DNA of 38,949 nt. Origin: Cyclobacteriaceae bacterium. GTDB taxonomy: Bacteria; Bacteroidota; Bacteroidia; Cytophagales; Cyclobacteriaceae. The notes below the pieces were generated by a model. The model did not search any database. It saw only the letters and a program-made list of their open reading frames with translations, and was not told the DNA's origin. Positions 2,591 through 38,024 of this stretch are shown piece after piece (the stretch's first letter is position 1; every line of letters begins with the position of its first letter). Both the position numbers and the translations under genes were made by a program. The stretch is from assembly GCA_036002745.1 (NCBI GenBank), contig DASYTA010000270.1, positions 1 to 38,949 on the forward strand, given 5' to 3'.

Positions 2591-2624
2591 AGTAAGAAGT
2601 GATACTCCAAGCGATGCAGAAAAA

Positions 2625-12934: not shown

Positions 12935-15900
12935 TTACCTGAAATTTCTTCCCTCATGAAAGACACTTTCCTCAAATATCTTCATTTGGGATCTATCTCG
13001 AGTGTCTGGCCCCCGTGAAGTTGTCTCATCTGATCGCATACGCGTGTCAAGCGTTGGATACCCCGTGCCATACGGAATCAAGTTTTGAAGCAGCTTTGAA
13101 ACATTAAAGCAACGTTTCACGATAACATGAATTACTTCGCCTTCGATCTGGAGTTTACCTTCTACCATCAACAAACGTGATTGAATGATTTCCTTCCGGT
13201 ACTGATCAAACAGATCTCGCCATACAACGAGGTTCATTGTTCCTGATTCATCTTCAAGAGTGATGAAACAAATTCCGCTCGCGGTTCCTGGGCGTTGCCT
13301 TACTAGAATAAGACCTGCAACTTTTACCCGGTCACCATTCTTTGCCTCCTTGAGTGATCGTGCCGTTAGGCATCGAAGTTGTACAAGTTGTTCGCGAATA
13401 AAGCTCACTGGATGCGCTTTCAATGACAATGATATCGAAGCATAATCGTGAACTACGTGTTCGGACATTGCCATTTCAGGAAGTGAAATATTTTCTTCTC
13501 CAACATTTTTTGCCTGATCAGAAAACAGCGCTTTCAATTGGTGATCTTGAGTTGATGCTTCCCACAACGCTTTTCTTCGATCATATCCTATCGACCGAAA
13601 TGCATCTGAGTCTGCCAGCTTCCCCAAAACAGCATCCGTTATTCCAGCTTCACGAAGTTCATGAATCGAATGATAACCATTGCCCCTTGCTTGAATTAGG
13701 TGTTCTATGTCATCTTCACGTAGTCCTTTCACTTGTCTAAAACCCAAGCGAAGTGGACAGTATTTCCCAGTTCTTTCTTCAAGTTTGTTGTCCCAGTTAG
13801 AAAAATTAACATCCACCGGAAGCATCTCTACTCCATGGTTGGTGGCATCAATTACAATTTGCGCTGGTTCATAAAATCCCATTGGTAAACTATTGAGCAG
13901 GGAGCAAGCGAACACATCAGGGTAATAGCATTTCAACCAAGATGAAACATAAACTAGAAGGGCAAAACTCACTGCGTGGCTTTCCGGAAATCCATAACTA
14001 CCGAATCCCTCTAATTGCTTAAAAACTCTGCGAGCATATTCCAAGGTGTATCCATTTGAGGTCATCCCATTGATGAGTTTGTCTTCAAAATGAGAGATCA
14101 GCCCATTGACTTTAAATGTTGCCATGCTTCTTCGCAGCTTGTCAGCTTCGGCTGGCGTAAATCCTGCAGCTACAATAGCAATCTTCATGGCTTGCTCCTG
14201 GAATAGTGGCACACCAAGTGTTCGGCCTAAAATTTCTTCTAGTTCCTTCGATGGATAAGTGATTGGCTCCTCTCCGTTTCTTCTTCTTAGGTACGGATGA
14301 ACCATGTCACCTTGAATAGGACCTGGCCTCACGATAGCGACTTCGATCACTAAATCGTAGAAACAATTCGGTCGTAGTCTTGGCAACATGGATTGTTGTG
14401 CGCGGCTCTCGATTTGAAATACTCCAATTGTATCTGCGTGAGTCACCATCTCATATACCTTAGGATCATCCTGTGGAATATTCGCCAAGGTTAGATCTAG
14501 ATTGTAGTAGCCCTTTGCTAGATCAAATGCTTTACGAATACAGGTCAACATTCCCAACGCGAGCACGTCAATTTTCATAAAACCAAGTACATCAATGTCG
14601 TCCTTATTCCATTCAATGTTCGTGCGATCTTCCATCCGCGCGTTGATGATTGGACAGAGATCAGAAAGTTTTCCTTCGGTAATTACAAATCCACCAGTGT
14701 GCTGGCCAAGCTGCCGCGGAAAACCAATGAATTGTTCTGTAAGCTGAAGCACTTTCTTAATGGTGGGGTCGTCTGGATTTATTCCTTGACTAATGATTCG
14801 ATTACGATCAAACCCTTCATCTTTAAAATCCCAGATCAAACCTGAGAGTCGACCAATGGTATCCACTGAAAGGCCCATTGCTTTTCCTACATCCCGAATT
14901 GCTCCTTTATGATGTTGTTGTGTTACTGTTGCCACGACAGCAGCGCGGTCACGTCCATACTTACTAAATATGTATTGCATGACTTCCTCCCTTCGCTCAT
15001 GTTCGAAGTCTACATCGATATCAGGGGGTTCATTGCGAGCAGATGAAATAAACCTTTCAAACAACAAATCGAATTTCGATGGATCAACTGAAGTGATTCC
15101 GAGGCAATAACAGACTGTAGAGTTTGCAGCTGAACCACGGCCTTGACAGAGGATTTTTTGCCCTCTTGCGTAGCGGACAATATCATATACGGTGAGAAAG
15201 TATTCAGCGTAGTTGACCTCATTAATAAAACTGAGTTCATACTCGATATTCGCTCTTACCTTATCCGGAATCTGATTGTTGAAAATTTGTTTCGCTCCTT
15301 CCCATGCCAAGTAGGTAAGTTCTTCCTGCGGTGTACGGCCTTCACTTGTTACTTCTTTGGGGTATCTGTATTTGAGTTGGTCGAGCGAGAATGTGCATGC
15401 ATCACTAATTATTTGCGTTTGCTCGATCGCATCTGGATATTGAAGGAACAGCCGTGCCATTTCTGTCGGCGGTTTTAAATATCTTTCTGCATTAGGATGT
15501 AAACGAAACCCGGCATTGTGGATAGTGCACTTTTCCCTGACACAAGTCACAACATCCTGCAATTCTCTGCGAGTAAAAGAATGATAGTGAATATCGTTTG
15601 TTGCTACCATCGGCATACGGAGTTGCTTACTGAGCCGTGACATGCGATACAATAGTTTTCCATCATCACCACTATAGGTTCTTGACGCGGCAATCCAAAG
15701 TTGTTCACTTAATACGTCACGATATTCTCGTGCGAGTCTTTTGAATTGATCTTCAAAATCAAATACTTTATTTAGTGTAGTTGGGGGAAGTAGTATAAAT
15801 TTTGATCCTGCCGCATACTCAAATACATCCGCTTTGTACAATTCACACTTGCCCTTTTCGGTTCTGAGATTTCCAATGGTCAACAAATTGGATATTCTGG

Positions 15901-16156
15901 AGTAAGCGTTGATATCAGTGGGAAGCGCTAGAAGACTTGGACCGTCCTTTAAATCGAGACGGCAACCAGGTATGATTCGGATGTCTAATTGCTTCGCCGC
16001 TGCATGTGCGCGAACTATTCCGGCAAGTGTATTGCGATCAGTAATAGCGATCGATTTGTAACCTAGAAGCGATGCTTCTTTAACGAGTTCTTCCGGATGC
16101 GAAGCACCCCGCAGAAAACTGAAGTTCGTAGTTACCTGTAACTCTATATAGCTCAT
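12935..16156 (-). CDS. dnaE2: Error-prone DNA polymerase III alpha (DnaE2/ImuC)
   Basis: NFSFLRGASHPEEL PHP start, GRGSAANS, PDIDVDFE, YGFPESH, RQRPGTA, C-terminal GRNFR. Confidence 0.97.
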   Translation of the reverse strand: MSYIELQVTTNFSFLRGASHPEELVKEASLLGYKSIAITDRNTLAGIVRAHAAAKQLDIRIIPGCRLDLKDGPSLLALPTDINAYSRISNLLTIGNLRTEKGKCELYKADVFEYAAGSKFILLPPTTLNKVFDFEDQFKRLAREYRDVLSEQLWIAASRTYSGDDGKLLYRMSRLSKQLRMPMVATNDIHYHSFTRRELQDVVTCVREKCTIHNAGFRLHPNAERYLKPPTEMARLFLQYPDAIEQTQIISDACTFSLDQLKYRYPKEVTSEGRTPQEELTYLAWEGAKQIFNNQIPDKVRANIEYELSFINEVNYAEYFLTVYDIVRYARGQKILCQGRGSAANSTVCYCLGITSVDPSKFDLLFERFISSARNEPPDIDVDFEHERREEVMQYIFSKYGRDRAAVVATVTQQHHKGAIRDVGKAMGLSVDTIGRLSGLIWDFKDEGFDRNRIISQGINPDDPTIKKVLQLTEQFIGFPRQLGQHTGGFVITEGKLSDLCPIINARMEDRTNIEWNKDDIDVLGFMKIDVLALGMLTCIRKAFDLAKGYYNLDLTLANIPQDDPKVYEMVTHADTIGVFQIESRAQQSMLPRLRPNCFYDLVIEVAIVRPGPIQGDMVHPYLRRRNGEEPITYPSKELEEILGRTLGVPLFQEQAMKIAIVAAGFTPAEADKLRRSMATFKVNGLISHFEDKLINGMTSNGYTLEYARRVFKQLEGFGSYGFPESHAVSFALLVYVSSWLKCYYPDVFACSLLNSLPMGFYEPAQIVIDATNHGVEMLPVDVNFSNWDNKLEERTGKYCPLRLGFRQVKGLREDDIEHLIQARGNGYHSIHELREAGITDAVLGKLADSDAFRSIGYDRRKALWEASTQDHQLKALFSDQAKNVGEENISLPEMAMSEHVVHDYASISLSLKAHPVSFIREQLVQLRCLTARSLKEAKNGDRVKVAGLILVRQRPGTASGICFITLEDESGTMNLVVWRDLFDQYRKEIIQSRLLMVEGKLQIEGEVIHVIVKRCFNVSKLLQNLIPYGTGYPTLDTRMRSDETTSRGPDTRDRSQMKIFEESVFHEGRNFR

Positions 16157-16163
16157 GACTCAC

Positions 16164-17660
16164 CTAAGCAAAAAAACCATGAATGAACCATTGATATCTT
16201 TCCTCGTGATAGTGACCTAACCGGAACAACCAATAACGATTACCCTCATCATCTTCCACTCTATAATAATCACGGTGTTCTCCTTGCTGCAGCCACCACT
16301 CTTGTTCGATGCGTTCAGGGCCATCAGCCTTTATAATAGTGTGCAGCTTTTCCTTATATCTGAATAGCATTGGTGGATAATCCGGAATAGGCGCTGTTAC
16401 TTCAATTGCTTCTGGTGCTTTCAACAGCTGTATAGGTCGTGGCTTTTCTTCACGCCATGGTGCAACAGAAATTTCTTCTAAAGATGTTGCAAGCTTTATT
16501 GATCGCTCCGGCCAGTAATGTTCATCTGCAACGTATCGATGGATGGCATTCTCTCCAATTTTGTTTGCTATTCGATCCAGGAGTTCGGACACACGACTGT
16601 CCTTTAGTCCGCCGGATCCTTCCCACATTTTTTCTTGGGCGGGAAACAGATCCTCTACCTTGGGTGCTTCAAGAACAAAAAGTTCAATACCCAATGAAGG
16701 TTCTATGCTCGCAATTTTTATCTCAAATAATTTGAAGAGATGTTTGATACTTCTTGAAGGTCGGCTCGTACCAATTTCAATTTGTTCAATCTTATTATCG
16801 ACACGATAACACTTGAAGGCCGCTGTTCGAATTCCTTTTTGTTCGTGTTCGAGTCGAACGCATAATAATTCCAATAATCGATTCAGTGCTATTTCAATTC
16901 CAGCTGCAGTCACTATGGGATCCATGCACGGTAGTCGCTCATGATAAGGTTCTATTGGATGAATCGGTTCTACTAATTCAATTTCCTGACCCAATGCTTT
17001 GTCAAGCTGATGAAGGAACTGCGCGCCGAAGCGTCTGCGCAATGCGGGTCGCGGCATTTGGCTGAATTGACGAATGCGATGAAGTCCAAGCTTATGCAGA
17101 CGTTCTGAAATTTCTGCGTCGATGCGCAACGCTGCCGACGGCAAGTTCATTAGAACTTGAACATGCTTACCTATTGGCACAACGCAAGAGTTAGCAAACC
17201 GAGCAATCCCCCAAGCTGAACCAATGGTGTCGGCCATCGCCGCTCTTACATCATAACCACGAGCGGTGAGTTTTCTGATAATATCTTTCAAGTAAGGTTC
17301 ATCTCCATCCCATAAATGAGAACATCCAGTTACGTCAAACAGTAGTCCATCGGGTGGATCAATTGCTACAAACGGAGTAAAACGAATACACCACTCGCCA
17401 AGTCGACGAAGTAATTTGTCAACAAGATCGGGCTTATCATCGCGAACTTGCAAGTCAACGATAACTGCTCTCGCATCAGCAAGTACCATTCCTACGGATA
17501 CTCCTTTTGACTCAGCTACTTTGTTAGCAGCAACAACAATCATCCTTCCATGAGAAGGTGATCTCAGAACGAAAGGCAAATTCTTTAGTTGAGTTTGACG
17601 GAGGGTGAACCAGTCCGTCTTGAGGTGCGGGAGCCAGATGGATACAAATCGCTTCGACAT
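16164..17660 (-). CDS. imuB: ImuB, Y-family polymerase-like protein
   Basis: RFTP.VAID.PDGL..DVTG, GPERIEQEWW, RDYY.VED, WF.HGFFA; lies between imuA and dnaE2. Confidence 0.95.
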   Translation of the reverse strand: MSKRFVSIWLPHLKTDWFTLRQTQLKNLPFVLRSPSHGRMIVVAANKVAESKGVSVGMVLADARAVIVDLQVRDDKPDLVDKLLRRLGEWCIRFTPFVAIDPPDGLLFDVTGCSHLWDGDEPYLKDIIRKLTARGYDVRAAMADTIGSAWGIARFANSCVVPIGKHVQVLMNLPSAALRIDAEISERLHKLGLHRIRQFSQMPRPALRRRFGAQFLHQLDKALGQEIELVEPIHPIEPYHERLPCMDPIVTAAGIEIALNRLLELLCVRLEHEQKGIRTAAFKCYRVDNKIEQIEIGTSRPSRSIKHLFKLFEIKIASIEPSLGIELFVLEAPKVEDLFPAQEKMWEGSGGLKDSRVSELLDRIANKIGENAIHRYVADEHYWPERSIKLATSLEEISVAPWREEKPRPIQLLKAPEAIEVTAPIPDYPPMLFRYKEKLHTIIKADGPERIEQEWWLQQGEHRDYYRVEDDEGNRYWLFRLGHYHEERYQWFIHGFFA

Positions 17661-17661
17661 T

Positions 17662-18390
17662 TCATCCCGCTTTCTTTTGTATTTCTAAGAATGACATTAC
17701 AAGTTCTCTTTGCGCTTGTTGAAATCCTTTGTCTGTCCACTGGACATCCCATGTACCAGGTTTTCCATTTCGTATCCGTTGCAATTCAACTCTCCACTTT
17801 GCAAATGCAACACCGGGGAGTTCATCCAATTTTTCACTTGACAGCGAAGAGATCTTCCAACGAGACACACACGCGGTTGTGCTAAGCCGTTGATTGTTGT
17901 TGAGAATAAAACCCGTGACGTGACTTTTTTCAACAGCCAATTGCAGACGTCTTGATGCAGTAAAACTTAAGTCATTGAGTTCCCCAACCACAGCAGCCAG
18001 CGCACCACACTTCAACGATTCATCAATCGCCCACAATATTTCTTTTTCTTTGTTTGTGTCGATGAAAACAAATTTTCCGGGATCAATGGAAAAGTTCTTC
18101 AACCCTGGTGGAAACAATTTTCGTGATGAGCTAATCCATAGTACCGCACCATCATTTCCTATTAAGGTTGAAAGCAATCCACACAGAAATCCACTTGTTG
18201 CAGCTAGGTTTTCAGCACAGGGTGATAAAAATTCATGAACGGAACCGATAGGAAAGGATCGGTTGGGAAATGCATCTGCAATCGGTCCTAATGTTTCATT
18301 CAACTCGACATTATCGGCAAATCGAAGGCCTTGCAGCCGAAGAATATCTTCCCGCAGGATCTTGAAAATATCTGCCCTCGCTGATTGCAT
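17662..18390 (-). CDS. imuA: ImuA, RecA-like accessory protein
   Basis: FP.GSVHEF, ASRRLQLAVE, W.VEL.RIRNG.PG motifs; first gene of the imu cassette. Confidence 0.93.
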   Translation of the reverse strand: MQSARADIFKILREDILRLQGLRFADNVELNETLGPIADAFPNRSFPIGSVHEFLSPCAENLAATSGFLCGLLSTLIGNDGAVLWISSSRKLFPPGLKNFSIDPGKFVFIDTNKEKEILWAIDESLKCGALAAVVGELNDLSFTASRRLQLAVEKSHVTGFILNNNQRLSTTACVSRWKISSLSSEKLDELPGVAFAKWRVELQRIRNGKPGTWDVQWTDKGFQQAQRELVMSFLEIQKKAG

Positions 18391-18436: not shown

Positions 18437-19033
18437 CTAATCAATTGTATAAGCTGGTTCTAAAAAATTTATCTTCATTGACTCTTCCTGGCGCTCGAAA
18501 TCCCTCCTTAACCTTTTTGTTCTCTTTACTTCTTTCTGATACAACCTTTCAAGCATATCTGGTGCAAATGGAACGCCATCAGCTTCTTCAAGTGGCAGCA
18601 CAAGAGGCTCGCTAGTTGCATCTCTTAGAAAACGATAAAGTTCATTAATTGTATAGGCCCACTGTGGGGGTGGCGAATTCTCCGGACGGGTCAATAATGC
18701 TTGAGTACTTTCATAAGCATCAAAGACCGCATCAATTTCTTGCTGGGTAAAAGGAGTGAATTTTAGAAAATTGATAAAGCGGTGTTCTTTGATATCTAGC
18801 AACTGAGGGTAGTCTTCTCTTGATTTAGCCAATGAGTAAACGTGATTCACCATGGATACTTTGAACAGGTCTGCTTTTCCTGGCAACACATCGAGGATCA
18901 TCCTTTTTGGATCAAACTTGTATTCGTACTTTTTCGAGACGATTTTAACATAAAGCTTGATCAGCCCCTCTCTTGTCTTTGGGGTAGCTTGTTTGTTTCT
19001 AAGTTCTTCATGAAGTTCTTCTGTAGTTTGCAT
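18437..19033 (-). CDS. Hypothetical protein (198 aa)
   Basis: Long ORF co-oriented with imuA, 46-bp gap. Confidence 0.75.
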   Translation of the reverse strand: MQTTEELHEELRNKQATPKTREGLIKLYVKIVSKKYEYKFDPKRMILDVLPGKADLFKVSMVNHVYSLAKSREDYPQLLDIKEHRFINFLKFTPFTQQEIDAVFDAYESTQALLTRPENSPPPQWAYTINELYRFLRDATSEPLVLPLEEADGVPFAPDMLERLYQKEVKRTKRLRRDFERQEESMKINFLEPAYTID

Positions 19034-19050
19034 AACATTAAGATTTAAGG

Positions 19051-19419
19051 TTAAACAGTCTCTAACTTTTTATTTTTTATTATAGAATTCATTGCTTCAT
19101 CAATCTCTTTGTAGAAGGGCTCATTGGTGAGATGAACAACTGCACGTTTCAAAAGCTGCTGAAGAACGTTGTCGTATGAATTGAGGTCAACACTTCCATC
19201 TCTTATTTCCAACAGCTTATCTTTTGCCTTAAACAAAATGTCCCCGTCAATTCTTGCTTCAAACTTGTAGCTCAGATACGTCCCCAGATCGCTGATCAAC
19301 CTGGTAATAATTATAGAGCGATGCTCCTTAATAATGCCCTTCAATTCCGCCACCATTACGTCGGCACTGGTGTCGGCTATTTGTTTACTTCCAAGGAGGG
19401 CTGATTTGACTGTTTTCAT
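19051..19419 (-). CDS. Hypothetical protein (122 aa)
   Basis: ATG start just downstream of the putative SOS boxes; 17-bp gap to the next gene. Confidence 0.75.
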   Translation of the reverse strand: MKTVKSALLGSKQIADTSADVMVAELKGIIKEHRSIIITRLISDLGTYLSYKFEARIDGDILFKAKDKLLEIRDGSVDLNSYDNVLQQLLKRAVVHLTNEPFYKEIDEAMNSIIKNKKLETV

Positions 19420-19453
19420 GGGAGAGATTCAACAGTGCGAAGGTATAGAAAAA

Positions 19454-19486
19454 CTAAATTATTTAGTAAACTACTAAAATAAATAG
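19454..19486. promoter_or_regulatory. Tandem putative non-canonical LexA-type SOS boxes
   Basis: CTAA-ATTAT-TTAG (19454-19466) and one-mismatch CTAA-AATAA-ATAG (19474-19486), upstream of the imu-containing operon. Confidence 0.7.
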
Positions 19487-19563
19487 TTTATGTGCCGGAA
19501 TTGAACTAAAAACGATGATTTCTTTAGAGTGCAGTATCCTCAATTAGCATTTCCGGCGTCATA

Positions 19564-19917
19564 TTATAAGGTGATATCGTCACAACACTTTTGCTCTTGA
19601 TGATAAATTAAATGCATCCTAACCTCATTTTGTTTTCTGTCTTTTGTAAACATTAAAACCCTGACTTTGTCGAAGTTTAGAATTGTGACTTTAGAAGTCT
19701 TACACCAAATCACGTGTGGTTTGTCTTGAAAATATATGATGTACAAATTGTTGTTCAGATAATAAACCTTGTCGCATTTGCATGATGGTTGGCGTTCAAT
19801 TTTGCTTGGTTGACCAAGTATCAAAGCAACCCCATCTTGTGTTGCTCCTTCAATTTTCTGAAGGTCTACAGAATAATTTTGAAATATTAAGGTTATAGCA
19901 ACTATGAAGAACGTCAT
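19564..19917 (-). CDS. Hypothetical exported protein (117 aa)
   Basis: Hydrophobic N-terminus; ILGQPSKIE motif; Cys pairs. Confidence 0.55.
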   Translation of the reverse strand: MTFFIVAITLIFQNYSVDLQKIEGATQDGVALILGQPSKIERQPSCKCDKVYYLNNNLYIIYFQDKPHVIWCKTSKVTILNFDKVRVLMFTKDRKQNEVRMHLIYHQEQKCCDDITL

Positions 19918-20315: not shown

Positions 20316-20762
20316 TCATTTATATTTTTGGAAGATATACGAAAAACATGGAGTAGCCGAAGTAAAAATCCCTTTCTGGTGTGCTTGATGATGTTTCTCG
20401 GGCAATTTCTTAAACAGGCTGTATCTTTTTTTATTTATTTTATTGACTGAGGTGTAATCGTAGATTGCGTCAACCATCATTATCACTTCAAGGTTACTGC
20501 AGTCTGTCGGCAGCTTAATATTTGTTATTTCCATTCCTATAAAAACAAACATTAACTCGTCAGTCCCTGTTGGAATATCAATTTTAAAATTTCCATTTAC
20601 GTCTGTAGTTCCCAGTACAACCTTGTCACCAGTTTGAATTTTTACTTCAGGCATAGCAGACAGGTCGGATTCACTAATAACTTTTCCTCTCAAGGACCTT
20701 GTTTGCCCATCGCATAAAAATGGGATCGAAAAGATTGTAAGGATGGCGAATAACGCTTTCAT
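20316..20762 (-). CDS. Secreted carboxypeptidase-regulatory-like domain protein; candidate immunity protein
   Basis: Signal peptide; GKVI...PEVKI...GTTDVNGNFKI...FIG pattern; 22 bp downstream of the toxin gene. Confidence 0.75.
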   Translation of the reverse strand: MKALFAILTIFSIPFLCDGQTRSLRGKVISESDLSAMPEVKIQTGDKVVLGTTDVNGNFKIDIPTGTDELMFVFIGMEITNIKLPTDCSNLEVIMMVDAIYDYTSVNKINKKRYSLFKKLPEKHHQAHQKGIFTSATPCFSYIFQKYK

Positions 20763-20784
20763 ATTCGTGTCAAATAGTTATTTG

Positions 20785-22809
20785 TTAATACTCGATTTCT
20801 GATGCCTTAGAATCTGTTGAAGATTGATTGGTAATTATAATAAACCTGAGAGATGGATTAATTTGTAACTGGCGTGCCTTATGAGCCATATCGCCGCCGG
20901 GTATACTCTGGCCGGAGGGGACTAGTCTGTCATTATCACCAAAGCGTGACAAGTGTGTATGGAAATCTGTGGTTATATCCATCGTACTGAAAAGGTCAGG
21001 TCTATTAAAACCAGAATTTTCTGTTTGAGCATCATTTTTACCGTATGCACCAATAAAGACGTTGCTTGTTGCAGTTTCACCTTTATTTGAAAGGTAGTAT
21101 CCACCCACTTCTTTGTCGACATAGTTTGATAATTTCAAAGCGAAGTCTCTTACACCAGCAAGACTTGGCTGACCACTTCCCCCAACCCCGATCACATTAC
21201 TTTTAGTCTGAAAATTCATGCCATTATTTAAAATTCCTTTTTCAATGCCTCCGATGGCAACTTTAGCTTCCCCTTTATGGGCTTTACTAACCAGGAACCC
21301 TAAGAAGCCTTCTCCCTTTTTTAAAACATTTCCGTTTTTGTCAGTTCTTACAATTCTATCCGGGTCTTTGTTCTTGTCTCCGACTTGAGTTATTTCCCCT
21401 GTCTTTTTGTTTAACGCAAAGTCTGTTAAGCCGCTGGGATCAACTCTATTTATCGGATTGTTTTGCACAAAATTATACGGGGTAACCCAATATCTTTTCT
21501 CGGCTGCAGGATCTATTTGCCAAAACCTTCCAATTGCAGGGTCATAAGATCTACTAATAACATCGTCAGAAAAATCGTCTTTCTCAGGTTCAATGAACTT
21601 TACAATCTTTCCCGTTAACCTGTTAATTTCAACTGTTCCAATTCTTGTTGTTTCTTCCTGGTCAAAAAACTCATAATTTTCTCCATCGCCAGCCGTTACC
21701 ATTTTAACTTTGTAATTGTAATTTTTGAACGGTTGTGGAGATTCATATTTATAGGGCTTTCGCGTTGTATCCTTTCTCACACGGTACAGCCAATTCAAAT
21801 ACATTTCTCTCGGCATTCTTCTGTAGCCGGCCTGGTGTATAGCGTAATAAGATTGCTCGAGCTGGGTGAACTCGTTCTTCATAACAGGGTCGTTCCAAAG
21901 TTTGCTAAAATGAACCACGCCTTTGTCTTTCATAGACCGTTCATATTGCTTTTTCAATAATTCCGCTCTCAATATCATCGCGTTGGGATAGTTGGTATAA
22001 TAGCTCAACGCTACGTCTAGCCATTTAACGGGAGTAGCAATGTCCATGTAACCGAATTTCTTGACATAGCCCTGAGCCAAGTCCGTGATGACATAAGAAA
22101 TCGTTTCTTTGGCCGACAGCGTGTCCATGTAAACCCCATCAGCAATAGCTTCTGTCTTAATATAACTATTGTGTTTTATTTCCGAATCAAACGGAAAACG
22201 CCCGGTTGTTAATTCTGTATTGTACCATCCGGTTTTATCACTCCATTGTTTAATGTATGTATGACTTGGTGTAATGGCTAACCAGGATTGTACACCGATT
22301 TCATCAGCAAGTATTTTATACAATGCAGGCAGACTATGGCAGTTACCAGTTTGTTCGTAAAGAAGTTTTGTCACAAACATTTTTGTCCAATCGTTTTCAC
22401 CAGTGAAATCATCCATATCATAAGTGAAGGGGACTTTTCTGAAACTCACTTTTTTATCAGGGCTCTGAAATTGCAACGAATCTTTCATTACCTTATAAAT
22501 AGCTCCTGCCAACAAAACCGCGTTGCGATCATTTTTATTGTAATCAAGACCGTCCATCGCTGCAACTGCCTTTGTCAGTTTGATCAACGCTTCAATCTGA
22601 AAAGTAAAATCTTCATAGCTTAACAAGTTTTCCGTGTACGCATTTTCAGTTATAAAAACTGCTCTTTTAAAAGACAATGGTTTCTCGTTTCTCAACATCT
22701 GATTGAGTTCATCAAACGCCAGGTCATAATAAACTTTTGCGCCTATGTCTTGTCCGAAAGAACTAATTGCCACGCTGGCAAATAGTAAGTGTAGAAGCAT
22801 TTTGTTCAT
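20785..22809 (-). CDS. Secreted transglutaminase-like (SirB1-type) + RHS core + JAB-like toxin fusion
   Basis: Signal peptide; TGNCHSLP..H.Y..WYNTELT; YDPAIGRFWQIDP...PYNFVQNNPINRVDPSG; C-terminal EVGGY...HTH...PS...D. Confidence 0.8.
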   Translation of the reverse strand: MNKMLLHLLFASVAISSFGQDIGAKVYYDLAFDELNQMLRNEKPLSFKRAVFITENAYTENLLSYEDFTFQIEALIKLTKAVAAMDGLDYNKNDRNAVLLAGAIYKVMKDSLQFQSPDKKVSFRKVPFTYDMDDFTGENDWTKMFVTKLLYEQTGNCHSLPALYKILADEIGVQSWLAITPSHTYIKQWSDKTGWYNTELTTGRFPFDSEIKHNSYIKTEAIADGVYMDTLSAKETISYVITDLAQGYVKKFGYMDIATPVKWLDVALSYYTNYPNAMILRAELLKKQYERSMKDKGVVHFSKLWNDPVMKNEFTQLEQSYYAIHQAGYRRMPREMYLNWLYRVRKDTTRKPYKYESPQPFKNYNYKVKMVTAGDGENYEFFDQEETTRIGTVEINRLTGKIVKFIEPEKDDFSDDVISRSYDPAIGRFWQIDPAAEKRYWVTPYNFVQNNPINRVDPSGLTDFALNKKTGEITQVGDKNKDPDRIVRTDKNGNVLKKGEGFLGFLVSKAHKGEAKVAIGGIEKGILNNGMNFQTKSNVIGVGGSGQPSLAGVRDFALKLSNYVDKEVGGYYLSNKGETATSNVFIGAYGKNDAQTENSGFNRPDLFSTMDITTDFHTHLSRFGDNDRLVPSGQSIPGGDMAHKARQLQINPSLRFIIITNQSSTDSKASEIEY

Positions 22810-22837
22810 AACCGATGCAATTAATTATTGATGATTT

Positions 22838-24487
22838 CTATTTATGTCTATTCAATTGAAGTTCGAGTTGCCGTCTCCTTATAATGTGTTGCCCTTTATT
22901 TGCCAGGTTGTTCATGCCCTCAAGCCATTTTTTGTAGGCCCAGTCCGGCATTTCCTTCCAGCCTAAGTCCCTTTTTACGTATGAAACTGCCGCTTCCGCT
23001 TTTTGTTTTATCGTTCGTGCTTGCTCATCGTTGTTAAATTTATCTTTAGGCATTTGGAATGATTCATACTGTCGCACAATATTATTCCACAGATCATTGT
23101 AGTAGCCTGCGTAAATCATATTTGCAGTTAAGTTCCTTGGAAAATATTGCTTTGCCGTTGTAGCCATTTGTAATACGCGATCATCTGTTCCAATTGTCTT
23201 CACGTAGGATAGGGCTAATGTAGTCATTAAGTATGCAATGGTTTCTTTCTCTGTTGATGGTCTCAAATAAATCCCGCTCTTTACTTGTTCAGTCGTTATA
23301 AAACCACTTTGCCAATGATAGTCGGTAGCGATAAACATCCTTGCAGTCAATTCTATGTTTTGCCAGTTTCCGAGATTGTCTTTGAAGGTAACATAAGAAT
23401 GTTGCGGGGCGAAAGCGATGTAAACGTCAGCCCTGAACATTTTTGCATACATATAATAGAGCATCGGCAAACTCATGCATTGGCCGCTACCAGTGCGCAG
23501 CAGTTTGCTTACAAAAACTTTTGTGATGTCTTTCTTCCCAGCATAATCCTCGTAGTCATAAAGCATCGGCTTTGACACAATGTTTCTCTCTTTCGCCTTA
23601 ATGTAAACTTTTGTGGTGTCTGTCATGTATTTGAAAATTGACATGACTTTGGAAAGATTGTCATCGAGGCTCACTTTGTCCTGGAGCATTAAGGCGGAAA
23701 TTACTTCGACACCATCCTGAAACATTCCGTTGAATTCTTTCCATGTCAATGTTTGGTCGTGTGCACTCTCCACCAACCAGGCTGCCTTTACAAAATCAAT
23801 CGGCTGCCTTCCATCTAGCATTGATTCAAGTTCATTGTATGATTTTACAAACCTGTCAGCTTTTAAACCATTGTGGATACCGAGTGTATAGTTGATTGTC
23901 GGTGTAAATAGTTCCTGATTGGCCACATTGAGAATTTGTTGTGATCGTACATTGTTTTGTTCGTAGGCTCTCAGGTCGGCGTCAATCATCATCTGGTTTC
24001 TTTGCTCGATTGATAGGCCATTTTCGTAAAGGCTTTTTGGTATTCCATAATTTATTTGTTGGGTTGGTGTGGCGATGGAACTGTTAAACTCAACCTCAGC
24101 TTGGTTTGTGAAAGCGGTATTTGGGTTCGGAATCTTTTTCTCATTCATCAGCTGCTGACCAAAATCATTCTGATTTTGGTATTTATAAAGTTCAGGATAT
24201 AACTCTTGACTTGTTTTGGTTTTTGGGGCTTTAAATAGTTCCTGTCGTTTTTGTTCTTCAGTCAGGTAAGGCCGGTAATTGTCGTTAATGAGCAAGTTAG
24301 GTATCACTTGGCCGTTCACATCCGTTTTAATCAGAAACAGAAATACCAACTGTATCCAGCCTATCGTTTTGAAGCTCTCGGCCGAGAGCAAGTGTATTGC
24401 ATTATTATGGGGTTGTAAGCAGACAGTTGTTGCACTCTTGTTTAAAGCGTATTGTGCGGTGATGAGAAATAGTATTATGTAGACCAT
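22838..24487 (-). CDS. Transglutaminase-like (SirB1-type) protein, paralogue of the downstream gene's N-terminus
   Basis: FVSKLLRTGSGQCMSLP..APQHSY..WQNIELT parallels FVTKLLYEQTGNCHSLP..TPSHTY..WYNTELT; start uncertain. Confidence 0.75.
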   Translation of the reverse strand: MVYIILFLITAQYALNKSATTVCLQPHNNAIHLLSAESFKTIGWIQLVFLFLIKTDVNGQVIPNLLINDNYRPYLTEEQKRQELFKAPKTKTSQELYPELYKYQNQNDFGQQLMNEKKIPNPNTAFTNQAEVEFNSSIATPTQQINYGIPKSLYENGLSIEQRNQMMIDADLRAYEQNNVRSQQILNVANQELFTPTINYTLGIHNGLKADRFVKSYNELESMLDGRQPIDFVKAAWLVESAHDQTLTWKEFNGMFQDGVEVISALMLQDKVSLDDNLSKVMSIFKYMTDTTKVYIKAKERNIVSKPMLYDYEDYAGKKDITKVFVSKLLRTGSGQCMSLPMLYYMYAKMFRADVYIAFAPQHSYVTFKDNLGNWQNIELTARMFIATDYHWQSGFITTEQVKSGIYLRPSTEKETIAYLMTTLALSYVKTIGTDDRVLQMATTAKQYFPRNLTANMIYAGYYNDLWNNIVRQYESFQMPKDKFNNDEQARTIKQKAEAAVSYVKRDLGWKEMPDWAYKKWLEGMNNLANKGQHIIRRRQLELQLNRHK

Positions 24488-24989: not shown

Positions 24990-25916
24990 ATGAAACCTGC
25001 TTTGATTAAAATCGCATTTCTAATTTTACTTTTCCCATTTCAAAATCTTAAGGCTTGGGATCACGGCGGGCACATGTGCGTAGCTGCTATTGCTTACACC
25101 AACTTGAAAACTCACAATCCGACTCTTATTCCTAAAATTGTTTCAATCTTAAAGAAGCATCCGGACTATACGTCGGAATGGAAAGCGCATATCGACGCGT
25201 CCGGATCGGATAAAGACTTAGTACTTTTCATGCTTGCAGCGCGTTGGCCCGATGATATCAAATCATGGTACGCAAAAAATAATGCTGGTGAAATTCACAG
25301 ACCTTGGCATTACGTTAACCTGCCAATATCTTTTGACGGAACAAAAGGTCCTCAACCAAAGGAAGGAGATCAGGACATTTATCAAGCTTTCAAAACTCAT
25401 TTAGATGTTTTAGGGTCAAGTGCGACGGATGAAAAAAAAGCGATAGCACTATGCTGGGTTTTTCATCTACTTGGTGATGTTCATCAACCGTTACATAATG
25501 TTGCCTTATTCTCGAAAACCTTTTTGAAAGGCGATAAAGGTGGAAATAATTTTACCCTTCTTGGCACACCCAATGAACTGCATGCATTTTGGGATGACAC
25601 TTTTCTCCCCAACGGATCCAACATTGCAAATTTAGATGGTCAGTGGCTAGCGAAAGTTAAGACCGCCTACAATGATGCGATGAACAACAATAAAGTCACT
25701 TATGATCCTAACTATAGCTTTGATTATAAGAAAGTGTCTAATGATGGAAAAGCGTTAGCCCAAAATTCAGTATATCAATTTTCGGGAAAAAAATTAGTTC
25801 CGGACAATGCGGTTCCTGCTGGATACAAAGACGCGGTTAGGAAAATATCAAGTAAACAAATTGTTTTAGCTGGCACACGGTTAGCTGAAGTCTTATCCCA
25901 AAAGGTTAAGAAGTAA
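24990..25916 (+). CDS. S1/P1 nuclease, secreted
   Basis: Signal peptide then WDHGGH, WPDD, WHYVN, HLLGDVHQPLH, LHAFWD zinc-ligand motifs. Confidence 0.95.
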   Translation: MKPALIKIAFLILLFPFQNLKAWDHGGHMCVAAIAYTNLKTHNPTLIPKIVSILKKHPDYTSEWKAHIDASGSDKDLVLFMLAARWPDDIKSWYAKNNAGEIHRPWHYVNLPISFDGTKGPQPKEGDQDIYQAFKTHLDVLGSSATDEKKAIALCWVFHLLGDVHQPLHNVALFSKTFLKGDKGGNNFTLLGTPNELHAFWDDTFLPNGSNIANLDGQWLAKVKTAYNDAMNNNKVTYDPNYSFDYKKVSNDGKALAQNSVYQFSGKKLVPDNAVPAGYKDAVRKISSKQIVLAGTRLAEVLSQKVKK

Positions 25917-25982: not shown

Positions 25983-27953
25983 ATGATCTTGCACTATGTA
26001 TATATTTTAGACTATGAAGGTGTTTTTATCAACATAGGATTCAACCTTGGCGGTGCATATCGATTTAAATATGACATTAACTCTAAGCATCTAGAAGTTA
26101 CAGAAAATCCATTTTATACAAAAGATTTTTTTAACCTACTTGATTCAACTGAAAACGGTAACGCTGCTATTGGGAATGTGAGTGGAATCATTGGCGGGAA
26201 TGGTTCTGGAAAATCTAGTTTTCTCGCTTTTATGAAGACAAATTTCGTGCGCGGAATGTCTGGGATGGTGTACCCAGTGATTGTTGCCCTTACGACTGAT
26301 GATGGGGAACTGAAACTTTACCATGATAGAGGTATTCCAATCGAAAATAATTCAGGAGATTTTTTAGGGTTTGAAATCATTGAGACATCTTCTAATGCAA
26401 CGAAGCATGTGATTCCTGGTGCAGGTGTCATTAATATTTCAAATCGATCAGAGATTGATGAACTAGTAGAGACGGACTTCGTCTTTCTCTCAAATGTTTT
26501 TGACAATGTTGTGCAATATGAATTTCAGGGGCTGCACAATTTATCAACTGATTTTTTGCTAAAAAATGATTTGAAAGCAAAAGCGGAATTGATTAACACC
26601 TGGGGGATTAATTTGATGGCAGCAAATTCCGAGATTGATTTTCATAAATTTCAAGATCTTCACCGTCAACTCGAATTTATAAATGCAAACAAAATGAGGG
26701 AAAACGTTCCCTTCGATTTACCCAATAAGGTAATTGTTTCAATCGGAAAGGATTTATTGTTCAGCAAGGACAGTGAGATTGGATTACAGGCAGAGTCAAT
26801 GTTAAATGCGTATGAATATCAAGATTTTATTCGCCGGTTCAAATCCTACGCCCAACTTCAGCTTGACAAAAATGATTTCAAATCAAGAGGGGTAATTTAT
26901 ATAACTGCAAATGCATTGCTGAATTATTTTTATGAGATAGCAATCTTTACCAGGTATTATAGAATTTCTGGTTTAGATGATTTTAAAATCGAATCTTTCC
27001 AAAATTATCAGCAAGCTTTTGATAATTTAATCCAATTTTTGGTGACTGATCTCGAAAATTTCAAGCGCGTCAGTGATAAAGATAGGTTTGCCTATGAACC
27101 TTACGGGAAAGATCTAGACCAGCTAAAGGGTCTTAAGGAATTGTTAGATTTTTTATTGCTAAATCTCTCAAAACAAAATGTTGGCGAAAGAGGAAATAAT
27201 TTTCTAATTGAAGGTAGCGTAAAGTACATAGATGAGTTCTTCTCAATCTACAGGCGGACGTACAGATATGATTCATACCTAAATTTCACATGGTATGACT
27301 TGAGTTCTGGGCAAAAAGCTTTTTTAAATATTTATGCACGGCTTTACTCATTGAGTGATCAAATTATCTCTCAAAGGGGTGCCAACCTAATACTCAAAAA
27401 AAATATAATCGTGCTCGTCGATGAAGGAGAGGCTTTTCTTCACCCGAATTGGCAGAAATCATTTCTGACAAATTTATTAGAATTCCTCCAGTCCAATTTT
27501 AGATCTGTGAACTTTACACGGAGCATACAGTGCATACTGACTTCAAATTCACCTTTCCTTGCATCGGATTTACCTAGCTCTAATGTGTGTTTTCTGAAAA
27601 AAGATAAACAAGGTGTAACTAAGATTCATGATAGTTTGGAGGACAGGAAACAGACATTTGCCGCAAACATTCATTCTTTATTAACCGATGCCTTTTTTAT
27701 GGAGCAGGGAACAATTGGAGAGTTCGCAAAAAGAAAAATAAACAAGGTGATTGAGTTGCTACAAAAGAAACAAAGCACGATCGAAAGCAATAGAGAACTG
27801 ATTGAGAATACAATTAATATGATTGGTGAGCCGGTTATTAAGTCAAAGCTTACTCAGATGTTAGCAGAGCGAATTTCAGTTGACTACATTAATTTGGGCA
27901 ATCGCATAAGGTCTCTGGAAGAGGATGTTAAAGAGCTTAAAAAGAAGCAATAG
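25983..27953 (+). CDS. ABC-type ATPase, Septu PtuA-like
   Basis: GGNGSGKS, LSSGQ signature, LVDEGEAFLHPNWQ, TSNSPF..SDLP, TFAANI, IGEFA; followed by an HNH gene. Confidence 0.85.
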   Translation: MILHYVYILDYEGVFINIGFNLGGAYRFKYDINSKHLEVTENPFYTKDFFNLLDSTENGNAAIGNVSGIIGGNGSGKSSFLAFMKTNFVRGMSGMVYPVIVALTTDDGELKLYHDRGIPIENNSGDFLGFEIIETSSNATKHVIPGAGVINISNRSEIDELVETDFVFLSNVFDNVVQYEFQGLHNLSTDFLLKNDLKAKAELINTWGINLMAANSEIDFHKFQDLHRQLEFINANKMRENVPFDLPNKVIVSIGKDLLFSKDSEIGLQAESMLNAYEYQDFIRRFKSYAQLQLDKNDFKSRGVIYITANALLNYFYEIAIFTRYYRISGLDDFKIESFQNYQQAFDNLIQFLVTDLENFKRVSDKDRFAYEPYGKDLDQLKGLKELLDFLLLNLSKQNVGERGNNFLIEGSVKYIDEFFSIYRRTYRYDSYLNFTWYDLSSGQKAFLNIYARLYSLSDQIISQRGANLILKKNIIVLVDEGEAFLHPNWQKSFLTNLLEFLQSNFRSVNFTRSIQCILTSNSPFLASDLPSSNVCFLKKDKQGVTKIHDSLEDRKQTFAANIHSLLTDAFFMEQGTIGEFAKRKINKVIELLQKKQSTIESNRELIENTINMIGEPVIKSKLTQMLAERISVDYINLGNRIRSLEEDVKELKKKQ

Positions 27954-29046
27954 AAGTATGTTTTTATACAAAAGTGGCCCTGGAGGAAATTTTGATCAAC
28001 TGGCGAAAATACATTTCGATCAACTTAAAGGGATTCGAATTTTTAAGAACGGCGGCAGTGGCCACTATGCTTTTTCAATCATTAAAAAAATCGACAATAA
28101 TAGTAAAGCAAGGCGGATTGGAAGAGAATTTTTCATGGACCTGCAGCGTGATAACTACAAGTTGGCATTGGAGATCATATCGGGAAAGCCTAAGCGTCTA
28201 GCAGAAATTGTTGAGAGCATTAATCAAAATATTGCGTCAAGTAGATATCCTGAAATTTTTAGAATATCACGAAAGGGCGTCTCGCTAACGAAGTTCGGCC
28301 AAAAGGTCGAAAGTACGTTTGACTACGGTACCTTTTCAAATAAGAATACTCCAAATTGGAATGCCTACCTGCTTGCAGATTTAGTTGGAATCAATGTGTG
28401 CCCTTATTGCAACCGAGGGTACACTTTTACAGCTAAGAATACTAACGAGAAAATTGTTCGACCCGAGTTTGATCATTTCTATTCGAGAGAAAAACATCCC
28501 TACCTTAGTCTATCTTTCTATAATCTTATTCCATCTTGTCACATTTGCAACTCCAATCTTAAACATAAAGTTGAGTTCTCGGTAGATACCCACTTACACC
28601 CTTATGAGGAAAGCCTTGATGAGTTGGTGAGATTTAGCGTGCGCCTCAAAAAGAAAAATACTGGTTCGTTAGTTGATGAAAAAAAGTCATTTGGTGAAAG
28701 TTTTTTTTATGGGGATTTAGGCAGCTTCGATTTAGTCCTGCGAGCTGCGAAAAGAGGGATTAATCGTAAAACTCTTAAACGCGCAATGAGAAGTGTACGA
28801 ACGTTTAGAATTCGAGAGCTGTATCAAAAACATAAGGACATGGTAATCGATATGATTTTGAATACTATTGTGTATGACGACAGCCAACTAAACTCTCTTC
28901 TCAACAACTACGGCAATTTATTTCGGGATCGGAACGATGTATTAAGGCACATAACAAAAAATTATGTAGGTCTTTCGGAAATGCCTAACAGGACATTCTC
29001 CAAGTTAGCAAAAGACATTCATACCGAATTTGGCCTAATTTATTGA
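27925..29046 (+). CDS. HNH endonuclease, Septu PtuB-like (probable ATG at 27958)
   Basis: CPYCN, EFDHFY, NLIPSCHICNS.LK, HPY motifs. Confidence 0.87.
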   Translation: MLKSLKRSNRSMFLYKSGPGGNFDQLAKIHFDQLKGIRIFKNGGSGHYAFSIIKKIDNNSKARRIGREFFMDLQRDNYKLALEIISGKPKRLAEIVESINQNIASSRYPEIFRISRKGVSLTKFGQKVESTFDYGTFSNKNTPNWNAYLLADLVGINVCPYCNRGYTFTAKNTNEKIVRPEFDHFYSREKHPYLSLSFYNLIPSCHICNSNLKHKVEFSVDTHLHPYEESLDELVRFSVRLKKKNTGSLVDEKKSFGESFFYGDLGSFDLVLRAAKRGINRKTLKRAMRSVRTFRIRELYQKHKDMVIDMILNTIVYDDSQLNSLLNNYGNLFRDRNDVLRHITKNYVGLSEMPNRTFSKLAKDIHTEFGLIY

Positions 29047-29053
29047 ATCCCAT

Positions 29054-30553
29054 TTAAGGTGAAATCACTGTTGATTGTTGCAAAATATTCAAGCATCGAC
29101 TTAAAATCTCCGGGTTGTTGATAATGACAATACAAAGTTTAAGCCTGGTTCTTGAGACGATTTGAAACAGCATTTTAGTTGGGTGATAATATGGCCTTTT
29201 TTGATAGTTTTTAGTTGATAATGTAACACCTCTATAATAAAAGTGTGCGTCAATCACGGCTGCAACATTGTTAAATTCTTGCCCAATTACTGTATGCGCG
29301 TTGTCGGGCTCCACTTCCACATTATGGTGTTCATATGGATGTGTTGAAATCCTTGACGGTGTATAGTTTATTATCTTCCAGTCTTCTGTTCTTAGCTGAT
29401 ACAAATAGGTTCTGGCTTCTTGATAGTTTTCAAAAAAGCGGATCTCTATATTAGAATACTTGTATTTTTCTATAGGTCTATTCTTGTCAAACAGGCACTG
29501 AATAAATGAAGCAACTTCTTTATTTGTTCGGATTTTAGTTGTCAGTTCAAACGGTTTTGTGGTCACTTCTTTTTCAATTTTCTCCGCTATGTTCTCGTGA
29601 ATTTCTCCCCTTCTTAAAGTCTGGAACCCGTCGTATGAAAAAATGCAATTGTTCGAGTTTTTCTTCACCTCCCTGATTACATGTGTCAATTGAGTTTGGT
29701 AAATCCTTTGCGCTTCATCAATAATAATTAGAAAGTATTTTGATAAATCTTCACTTGTTAAGGTCTTTGCAGGGATAATATTCCAGCCACATTTGTCACG
29801 GAGAGTAAGATGACCGGCGTTCAGGTATCCGCAATGAACTATTAGAGTCTTCTTTTTCTGTAAGATCTCTTTTGCAATATCGAATGTGAGCAAGGTTTTA
29901 CCAGTACCCGCTCTACCCTTTATAGAGAGAATGGAATAAGTTGGAGTGCTCAACTGTTCCAAGGTTTTTTCTTTAATCATTTCCTGATGCGCCGTAAGGA
30001 AGTACTTTCCGTCAATAAATTCTTGGGTTGAATTGAATGGGGAAACTAGATAATTGGATGGGTTAAAATAACTGTCAATGTCTACGATCTTCTTTACAAT
30101 TTGAGAAGCCAGGGTTTCTAAAAGTTGGGTGATGGTCGTTTCTATCAGGCATTGGTCTTCATCAATAGTATATAGTTTTTTGTCTTCTGATACATATGAA
30201 TAATTATATGTCTTTCTTTTCAAGAAACTCAAATAGTATTTATTCCGGATTAGTTGAGTTTTGATTTTTTCATGCGTGCTACTTCTTTTCAACTCAATAT
30301 TGACAACCGATTCATCGTCTATTCTTAGTAGATCGAACTCTTTAGAAATTTGGGGAATTGTATATCCAATGAAGTATTTATCGAAAAGTGTCATTTTTGG
30401 ACTTTGAGATTTCAAATGATTCACCAATACTTCCAGATCTTTCAATTCATCATCTTTGATTTGCACTGAATGATATTCTAAGTATGAGTTAAACAATTCT
30501 GAGCTTAGGTTTTTATAAGCACTGAGAATTGAAATAAGATTAGCTTCTGTCAT
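29054..30553 (-). CDS. PD-(D/E)xK-like nuclease fused to SF1/DUF2075-like helicase
   Basis: EFDLLR...VNIELK; GRAGTGKT; IIIDEAQR; GQEF; SRTR. Confidence 0.8.
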   Translation of the reverse strand: MTEANLISILSAYKNLSSELFNSYLEYHSVQIKDDELKDLEVLVNHLKSQSPKMTLFDKYFIGYTIPQISKEFDLLRIDDESVVNIELKRSSTHEKIKTQLIRNKYYLSFLKRKTYNYSYVSEDKKLYTIDEDQCLIETTITQLLETLASQIVKKIVDIDSYFNPSNYLVSPFNSTQEFIDGKYFLTAHQEMIKEKTLEQLSTPTYSILSIKGRAGTGKTLLTFDIAKEILQKKKTLIVHCGYLNAGHLTLRDKCGWNIIPAKTLTSEDLSKYFLIIIDEAQRIYQTQLTHVIREVKKNSNNCIFSYDGFQTLRRGEIHENIAEKIEKEVTTKPFELTTKIRTNKEVASFIQCLFDKNRPIEKYKYSNIEIRFFENYQEARTYLYQLRTEDWKIINYTPSRISTHPYEHHNVEVEPDNAHTVIGQEFNNVAAVIDAHFYYRGVTLSTKNYQKRPYYHPTKMLFQIVSRTRLKLCIVIINNPEILSRCLNILQQSTVISP

Positions 30554-37487: not shown

Positions 37488-37566
37488 TGCAGTATTCAAA
37501 CAGATTACAAGTCCAAGTGGGGATATGCCGGTTATTAAGTGTCAATGGCACGAGTAAAAGTGGGCG

Positions 37567-37579
37567 CTAAAAAGTTTAG
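37567..37579. promoter_or_regulatory. CTAA-N5-TTAG putative SOS box next to the right-end TnsB sites
   Basis: CTAA-AAAGT-TTAG followed by TA; 4 bp from the innermost TnsB-type site. Confidence 0.45.
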
Positions 37580-37583
37580 TATA

Positions 37584-37653
37584 CAATCCGTGACTATTTT
37601 GAACAAGTCCGTAACTATTCTGAACTAGTCCGCACCTTTTTTGTTCACGCACA
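37584..37653 (-). repeat. Transposon end with three contiguous 21-bp TnsB-type sites (Tn7R-like)
   Basis: Minus strand: TGTGCGT GAACAAAAAAGGTGCGGACTA GTTCAGAATAGTTACGGACTT GTTCAAAATAGTCACGGATTG. Confidence 0.9.
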
Positions 37654-38024
37654 ATGAAATAAGGATATTTCACTTTACCAACGTGTCGCCATTCATAAAA
37701 ACCTGTGCTGGGTAGCAAACAGCGCTTTCCAGTTTTCGTGGAATCCTTGAATGCGTTTGTTGTGTAGGAGTTCTCGCTAACACAATTCAAGGTGTTTGCT
37801 ATTTTCGGGTAATCCTTTGTGGTAGCAAAATGCGGAATAAGCCCCCACTTGTATAACTGAAGCTCTCGGGGTTTATCAGCTGTTAGCACAAGGCCTGGTT
37901 TATAGTCAAAACCGTTTTCATAGAATTGCGCGGAATAAATTTCGGCCATTACTGCAGCATAGGAAGCGCTGTAGTAATTGGCAACATCATCAATGGTTTC
38001 GCGCTGTTGTCTGTGATAACACAT
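37654..38024 (-). pseudogene. 5' part of the resident SRAP gene, interrupted by the transposon
   Basis: MCY start, ENGFDY, WGLIP, RCLLPSTGFYEW, KYPYF. Similarity stops at the TGT end, and the AGL and H-RMP motifs are missing. Confidence 0.9.

Follow-up and report, generated by a model that had tools for sequence, protein, structure and literature searches.

A putative polymorphic toxin operon of Bacteroidota combining a half RHS core with two SirB1/menin-like carriers and no YD-repeat shell

Three consecutive open reading frames (ORFs) on the minus strand of contig DASYTA010000270.1 (Cyclobacteriaceae bacterium, assembly GCA_036002745.1) were analysed as a candidate toxin operon. The window is the whole stretch of 38,949 nucleotides that was analysed, and the coordinates of the three ORFs are window positions. 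In the order of transcription they encode P0002, a tip-less carrier (carrier A); P0001, in which a second carrier (carrier B) is fused to a toxin; and P0003, a candidate immunity protein (Table 1). An earlier note on this DNA had read P0001 as a signal peptide and a SirB1/transglutaminase-like domain with a Cys-His-Glu site, fused directly to a bare RHS core with a DPxG motif and a JAB-like tip of about 213 residues with an E...HxH...S...D pattern. It placed no YD-repeat shell in the protein, a tip-less paralogue upstream and a small secreted protein downstream. Most of this anatomy was borne out. The hydrophobic leader of P0001 ends G/Q as read from the sequence, P0002 and P0001 share 27% identity across 330 amino acids (aa) (E 2e-32), and P0003 has a leader and matches PF13715 (E 1.4e-8). 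The Pfam scan of P0001 returned no match whatever, so no RHS/YD repeat is present, and only about 66 residues separate carrier from core. Two points had to be amended. The core matches TIGR03696 (E 3.4e-11, 43.5 bits against a cut-off of 32.5) and contains D433 and D457, but the match covers only the last 42 of the 76 model positions and thus represents a half core. Nor is the carrier joined directly to it, since a conserved module of 60 residues, named here the pre-core, lies in between.

Apart from TIGR03696, no Pfam or NCBIfam match was obtained for P0001 or P0002, including any type IX secretion system (T9SS) sorting, TANFOR or other export domain. Hydrophobic N-termini, mostly cut before Gln, were also found on relatives of carrier A, carrier B and the toxin, and the two carriers, which are paralogues, are likely exported by Sec. 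The first ATG of P0002 (24300-24487, minus strand) lies 59 codons ahead of the probable mature Gln. The mature protein probably starts at Q60, and a TTG start near codon 33 would yield a leader of ordinary length.

Table 1. Coordinates of the operon and of the P0001 domains (residues in protein numbering, positions in window numbering)
Feature	Positions	Strand	Remarks
P0002, carrier A, 549 aa	22838-24487	-	Tip-less SirB1/transglutaminase-like paralogue with N-terminal extension
P0001, fused carrier B-toxin gene, 674 aa	20785-22809	-	ORF and carrier/core architecture
P0001 probable Sec signal peptide, residues 1-19	22753-22809	-	Mature N-terminus Gln20; read from sequence
P0001 carrier B domain, residues 20-352	21754-22752	-	Transglutaminase-like core with C157-H183-E199 plus helical part; SirB1/menin-like
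P0001 pre-core module, residues 353-412	21574-21753	-	Matches N-terminus of split toxins
P0001 C-terminal half RHS-associated core, residues 419-461	21427-21555	-	TIGR03696 positions 35-76 of 76
P0001 variable tip, residues 462-674	20788-21426	-	213 aa after DPSG-L
JAB/MPN fold in P0001 tip, residues 542-674	20788-21186	-	E567, H617, H619, S632, D640
P0003, candidate immunity protein, 148 aa	20316-20762	-	CarboxypepD_reg-like beta-sandwich and helical tail; exported

Homologues were collected by a word search (364 matches, 120 listed) and a full HMMER search (7913 matches at E 0.001, 150 listed), and both sets together with P0001 gave 249 distinct proteins. Among these listed matches the carrier-core fusion was present in 145, with the core 50-100 aa behind the carrier in every one, and the 141 fusion tips of at least 100 aa fell into 66 clusters. 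The earlier note had proposed just such a search for a constant N-terminus with variable tips. Genomic context was taken from a GTDB scan, in which 300 carrier-encoding stretches were found and the best 80 reduced to 79 loci, a set biased toward carriers close to P0001. ORFs were classed by hidden Markov models, and the 90 locus tips (89 from the GTDB loci plus the window) formed 53 clusters.

A toxin-type gene was found at 71 of the 79 carrier loci. In 7 of the remaining 8, which have carriers and no toxin gene, the contig ends no more than 1.3 kb from the carrier. Most loci have the split form, with carrier A, carrier B, toxin and a variable small gene as separate genes (57 split against 14 fused loci); the orders were A-B-toxin at 35 loci, A-toxin-B at 15, A followed by the fused B-toxin gene at 14, and other or truncated orders at 7. 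An A-type gene lies directly upstream of the fused toxin gene in 14 of 14 cases, and several loci carry two or three consecutive toxin-partner pairs. Split toxins are about 330 aa long (about 280-430) and consist of a leader, the pre-core, the half core and a tip. No YD shell was found in the toxins, and the longest core-bearing ORF across the 79 loci has 741 aa. A shell encoded in cis was rejected as an explanation, with shell-type domains in only 1 of 20 neighbouring ORFs of more than 800 aa. A short-toxin subtype of about 370-430 aa, with a different N-terminal module of about 100 aa, was also seen (L027, L028, L030, L070, L095, L113; P0116, P0128). It adjoins a divergent B-like carrier, has a lipoprotein-type leader in some cases and, at L028 and L030, is accompanied by two small lipoproteins.

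The hosts of the 79 loci are nearly all Bacteroidota (Cytophagales, Bacteroidales, Flavobacteriales and Chitinophagales), the others being Balneola, an Ignavibacteriaceae and one Verrucomicrobia metagenome-assembled genome. The carrier was detected at E 1e-20 in 12 of 400 genomes of an even phylum sample, and carrier-level matches, in both fused and split form, were found in 11 of 100 related genomes.

A tree of 146 carrier domains was computed with FastTree and rooted at the midpoint, 8 duplicate or near-duplicate loci being left out. B-type and fused carriers form one group (support 0.994). The fused carriers stand at three places, all inside the B type, which can be read as three independent fusions. 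Twelve fused forms including that of the window (support 0.988) are nested among split B carriers, and the fusion is taken to have arisen from the split operon. A single deletion, or a mistake in assembly, that placed a SirB1-like gene against the last part of an RHS gene, which the earlier note had kept as its second option, might be suspected from the fragmented assembly (719 contigs) and from the presence of the stretch in only one DNA run, with no RNA run listed. The 145 independent fusion proteins, the 14 fused and 57 split GTDB loci and the three positions in the tree leave this explanation next to no probability, and it was ruled out by the homologue searches. The earlier note had also named, as a finding that would overturn it, a fusion unique to this genome with relatives encoded by separate genes. 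Most relatives are indeed split, but the fusion is not unique and the split relatives are equally cage-less. The fusion in the window is accordingly best described, from the tree and the gene orders, as the derived state of a three-part system, and the earlier reading of a polymorphic, cage-less delivery system is supported.

The Cys-His-Glu triad is conserved throughout. C157, H183 and E199 are unvarying in 16 of 16 aligned carriers, the corresponding C337-H363-E379 of P0002 in 58 of 58 A-type proteins, and, with both types counted together, all 146 carriers have the triad (137 by pattern, 9 pattern misses confirmed by eye). An AlphaFold2 model of P0001, calculated from a 144-row alignment, had a mean predicted local distance difference test score (pLDDT) of 87.4 and a predicted template modelling score of 0.66, with carrier, pre-core and tip modelled confidently and the carrier B domain mostly above 90. 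The best fold match of carrier B was menin, a transglutaminase-like protein that binds peptides according to PDB titles (3re2; Z 13.6, root-mean-square deviation (rmsd) 4.3, 257 residues aligned; Foldseek E 3.6e-4). Other matches were a solved transglutaminase (4xz7; Z 8.0, rmsd 4.6, 147 aligned) and, with Z 7.4, rmsd 5.0 and 144 residues aligned, LapG. A SirB1-type cluster of the Atlas, 99% of which is PF13369, was matched with a TM score of 0.82 over 303 residues. At the level of sequence, neither P0001 nor P0002 matched PF13369 in the Pfam scan, 6 relatives gave weak matches (E 0.004-0.05, all below 23.5 bits and thus below the gathering score), and searches of the PDB returned no solved relative (best E 0.57 and 0.25).

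Contact between the carriers was modelled with P0001 residues 20-470 and P0002 residues 150-549 as two chains. The complex score was 0.83, 0.83 and 0.81 over the runs, against 0.00 for the best control; the runs share at least 61% of contacts and the partner pLDDT is at least 81. Of the solved pairs 116 of 157 attained the mark for this score, and of the mismatched pairs 2 of 215, counts that hold only roughly here, as the complex was scored on custom alignments. By sequence there is no solved relative that the prediction could have reproduced. In the confident interface, equivalent segments of the two carriers are paired (P0001 193-229 with P0002 370-409), and pre-core residues 357-384 touch P0002 382-390. 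The model supports binding of P0001 and P0002, and a role of the pre-core as a docking handle is predicted from it. The pre-core corresponds to residues ~17-90 of the split toxins, where it forms the constant N-terminus.

In the current view the RHS core plugs a YD-repeat barrel, which shields a toxin and then releases it. The half core of P0001 carries the motif DPAA-x20-DPSG-L; a pattern search of 89 relatives recovered its first Asp in 82 and its second in 88, and in split relatives the core covers about positions 42-75 of the 76 of TIGR03696. Cleavage after L461 is predicted by analogy with Tse5, for whose comparable motif, DPXGX18DPXG, the accessible part of PMC10684867 states that both Asp residues are required for cleavage of the tip. 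A further segment, RxYDP (window 21520-21560; L035-L041), is extra in the clade of the window and missing from split toxins, as if recombination had brought this clade a longer stretch of the core of an ordinary RHS protein.

In the tip of P0001, E567, H617, H619 and D640 are unvarying in 36 of 36 relatives and S632 is kept in 34 of 36. Residues 542-674 resemble PfJAMM1 (5ld9; Z 10.0, rmsd 2.6, 103 aligned), Cap3 (Z 8.8) and RadC (Z 7.0), and a split relative with the same tip likewise matched JAB/MPN proteins, in agreement with the JAB-like assignment of the earlier note. The tip matched neither PF15659 nor PF14220, nor any other Pfam family at E 0.1, and a non-circular profile of it matched a true PF15659 tip in the first 37 positions only. 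It is carried by 56 of the 249 retrieved proteins, among them 25 fusions and four proteins of 1167-2625 aa with an RHS core, the 1167-aa protein consisting of DUF6443 and RHS repeats. Its presence on both caged and cage-less proteins establishes, from the sequences, that tips are exchanged between the two. A metagenome scan with the tip returned 1 locus only. A second cage-less architecture with the same tip, 447 aa long and made of a leader, a PKD domain and the JAB-type tip, was found at L179 (1462-2802, minus strand), followed by two lipoprotein partners.

Tips shared with caged RHS proteins would also be found if the short toxins served a YD shell from another site in the genome, as its cargo or as donor cassettes, and the carriers were incidental neighbours. 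In all 5 system-bearing genomes that were tested, long RHS-core proteins are encoded elsewhere, with YD matches in 4. Against this, the short toxins bring leaders of their own along with a pre-core, the latter unseen on the four long proteins with the tip of the window; the long RHS proteins bear full cores of their own; and neither the constant, short spacing in the carrier-core fusions nor the near absence of shell-type domains from neighbouring ORFs agrees with it. A shell in trans is considered very unlikely.

Named tips of the family were Colicin_E5, AHH, Tox-REase-5, Toxin-JAB1, Ntox46, Tox-MPTase2, Peptidase_M91, TseH, a cell-wall hydrolase and DUF4329, and a scan of 72 proteins gave Pfam matches in 10, including Peptidase_M66. 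Of 86 locus tips, 85 had a length of 170-255 aa; among the control RHS tips this range held 33 of 51. Since the wider fusion set reaches 326 aa, the lengths are described as narrower and not as capped.

A small gene lies directly behind 87 of the 90 tips, and its 70 clusters largely track the 53 tip clusters. By a crude hydropathy rule 78 of the 87 products have a hydrophobic N-terminus, and one is Imm8. For P0003, proposed as immunity protein in the earlier note, the evidence is divided. A homologue stands behind the same JAB tip at L036 and at L183, the latter being the C-terminus of an ordinary RHS protein whose core is complete, whereas an unrelated gene stands there at six loci (L035, L174, L176-L179). 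At L035 this is a DUF6794 gene, and at all five of the others (5/5) a lipoprotein with a Y/F-x-C motif, which fits the motif stated for Imm65 in the accessible text of PMC3482391. The lipoprotein had no Pfam match and was not found in genome G000 (93% complete). Among 250 genomes of the family, 14 loci with P0003-like genes were detected, of which 1 lies behind a core and tip; the remaining genes have small exported genes around them or are joined to a domain that also occurs in the L035 gene (E 6e-9). P0003 is regarded as a plausible cognate immunity protein, somewhat more likely than not. Three small ORFs downstream of it (18437-19917, minus strand; 117, 122 and 198 aa) gave no Pfam, NCBIfam or PADLOC match.

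The operon very probably encodes some kind of polymorphic toxin system. The favoured explanation, held with rather less assurance and still judged the probable one, is a Sec-exported polymorphic toxin in which an A/B heterodimer clamps the pre-core as a substitute for the cage, and the Asp pair releases a variable, likely antibacterial tip. Both carriers and the toxin would be exported by Sec and meet in the periplasm, where the heterodimer would grip the pre-core and stand in for the YD barrel, a contact that comes from modelling. D433 and D457 would cut after L461 and free the tip, and the complex would leave the cell by some path for which the operon has no genes, with outer-membrane vesicles or surface display as the best guess. 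The JAB tip would be a Zn-dependent enzyme acting in the envelope of the target cell, the envelope being suggested because both candidate immunity families are exported, and P0003 would protect the producer.

Several observations weigh against this explanation, the first group of which concerns core and carriers. The half core was modelled with a pLDDT of only 39-55 in the P0001 fusion and 50-62 in the split relative with the same tip, and it lies outside the confident contacts of the complex model, so that a working protease site is only predicted. No RHS structure was among the fold matches of either model, which is no proof that the folds differ. The calibration of the complex score is rough, as stated above. 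The RxYDP segment, with an Arg that we take to be a catalytic residue, occurs in only 9 of 89 cores, mainly in the clade of the window. Intact triads in both carriers would be needless for a purely passive holder, and these, together with the poorly modelled half core, also speak for carriers that are active enzymes, whose Cys-His-Glu sites free the tip or attach the toxin covalently to a surface, the half core being mainly a recombination handle. The predicted interface with the toxin chain includes E379 of carrier A, and the fold matches include the solved transglutaminase and LapG. Conservation of the Asp pair fits selection on protease residues instead, C337 and H363 are outside the named contacts, and to our knowledge no activity has been described for SirB1-type proteins, which is counted against such enzymes. 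Active carriers of this kind, the strongest of the rival readings, are rather unlikely, and they are compatible with a docking role. A combined form, in which a catalytically active SirB1/menin-like heterodimer replaces the RHS barrel, holds the tips by the 60-aa handle and complements or regulates the half protease in a phylum-wide, undescribed system, is put forward tentatively, at a little less than an even chance.

The second group of adverse observations concerns export and targets. No conserved secretion gene was found beside the operon across the 79 loci, where the largest clusters of neighbouring genes, an antisense ORF and an immunity-type family, reach 9 loci each, and no outer-membrane export signal was found on P0001 or P0002 with Pfam and NCBIfam. 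In two scans most tips lacked a Pfam match (62 of 72 proteins and 37 of 46), and the six loci with an unrelated gene behind the JAB tip belong here as well. The lack of an evident export route to a target, the mostly unnamed tips and the many downstream genes encoding exported proteins of no family would suit polymorphic secreted or surface enzymes with a non-killing use such as kin marking, scavenging or surface remodelling. Yet the tips with a name belong to nuclease and peptidase families of the sort usual in antibacterial polymorphic toxins, an Imm8 gene stands behind one tip, and ordinary RHS loci take part in the exchange of tip-partner pairs (L183), which makes a non-killing use improbable.

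Other genes of the window were recorded. An S1/P1 nuclease gene with a leader (24990-25916, plus strand) is divergent from the toxin operon and is not a conserved neighbour. A defence-like cluster adjoins the operon, with a PDC-M62A/B pair (25983-29046), an AbiO/Nhi-like helicase-nuclease (29054-30553) and a DUF4365-dynamin-like GTPase (31265-33547). A set of Tn7-like transposon genes occupies 225-6940 (minus strand), namely TnsA (6149-6940), TniB/AAA (2625-4148), TniQ (1703-2590) and TniQ/TnsD (225-1706), together with a 679-aa ORF in the TnsB position that has no Pfam match. Three genes at 12935-18390 (minus strand) presumably form an imuA-imuB-dnaE2-like mutagenesis cassette, and two SRAP genes are located at 9013-10110 (plus strand) and 37542-38024 (minus strand).

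Within a large barrel-less family the half core is kept under selection beside two dedicated carriers, for which a docking site is predicted. If the favoured explanation is confirmed, this would be a new class of polymorphic toxin delivery in the phylum, the need of the RHS protease for its cage would become directly testable, and exported SirB1-like proteins would receive a function. The family would also be a source of dozens of unnamed toxin-immunity pairs, encoded by small, expressible genes in cultured environmental strains, among which Marivirga lumbricoides (L039), Fulvivirga kasyanovii (L044) and Chryseotalea sanaruensis (L053) carry the operon. If the combined form with catalytically active carriers is true, RHS autocleavage chemistry would operate without a cage, the orphan SirB1 fold would gain a first concrete role, and toxins would leave the periplasm of Bacteroidota by a Sec-dependent route using neither the type VI secretion system nor a T9SS signal.

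No description of the A/B/toxin operon was found in the literature searched, subscription papers being largely outside its coverage, and the accessible parts of 10.1101/2024.02.26.582050, PMC12419801, PMC13483458, 10.1101/2021.10.19.465003, 10.64898/2026.08.26.747336 and PMC3495828 do not mention it; the operon is apparently undescribed and its packaging module apparently new. Among known systems, MafA/MafB of Neisseria and the TANFOR toxins of Bacteroidetes are comparable in general plan. Both resemble the operon in Sec export and in a constant N-terminus specific to the lineage, and for Maf the accessible text of PMC3482391 proposes an upstream partner as the holder of the toxin; TANFOR toxins are large and, according to that of PMC7073777, lie among T9SS substrates. 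The operon has neither a MafB-N nor a TANFOR domain by Pfam, and the accessible descriptions of both systems give no RHS half core or twin transglutaminase-like carriers.

The carriers have their fold in common with SirB1/YchA (PF13369 Transglut_core2 plus TPR) and menin. Unlike SirB1/YchA they are exported, occur as paired paralogues in a toxin operon and are sometimes fused to the toxin; no link between SirB1 and toxins turned up in the literature searches. The tip of the window shares the E, HxH, S, D motif, the JAB fold and the Bacteroidota RHS context with Tox-JAB-1/Imm65 (Zhang et al. 2012) and with JAB/MPN+ enzymes, and true PF15659 tips occur on relatives in the same operon type. The window differs from Tox-JAB-1/Imm65 in lacking a PF15659 match and in having P0003 downstream instead of the YYFC lipoprotein of five other loci.

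Closest in composition are the RHS toxins with an 'inactive transglutaminase' domain described by Zhang et al. 2012. In the accessible text of that paper (PMC3482391) the domain follows directly on the signal peptide, has lost its catalytic residues, is proposed to anchor the protein by peptide binding and is followed by an array of RHS repeats. In the operon described here every triad is intact and no array is present, and overlap with the additional-file lists of that paper is possible. With RHS/YD toxins at large (Tse5, RhsA, Rhs1, Tc BC and the Bacteroidota DUF6443-RHS proteins) the operon has in common the Asp pair, the predicted DPxG-L cleavage and variable tips followed by a small gene. 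The two even share cargo, the same JAB tip being found on the 1167-aa DUF6443-RHS protein and the tip-P0003 pair at L183. The operon differs from them in having no YD array or barrel, a half core in place of a whole one, toxins of about 330 aa compared with more than 1000 aa, and two carrier paralogues.

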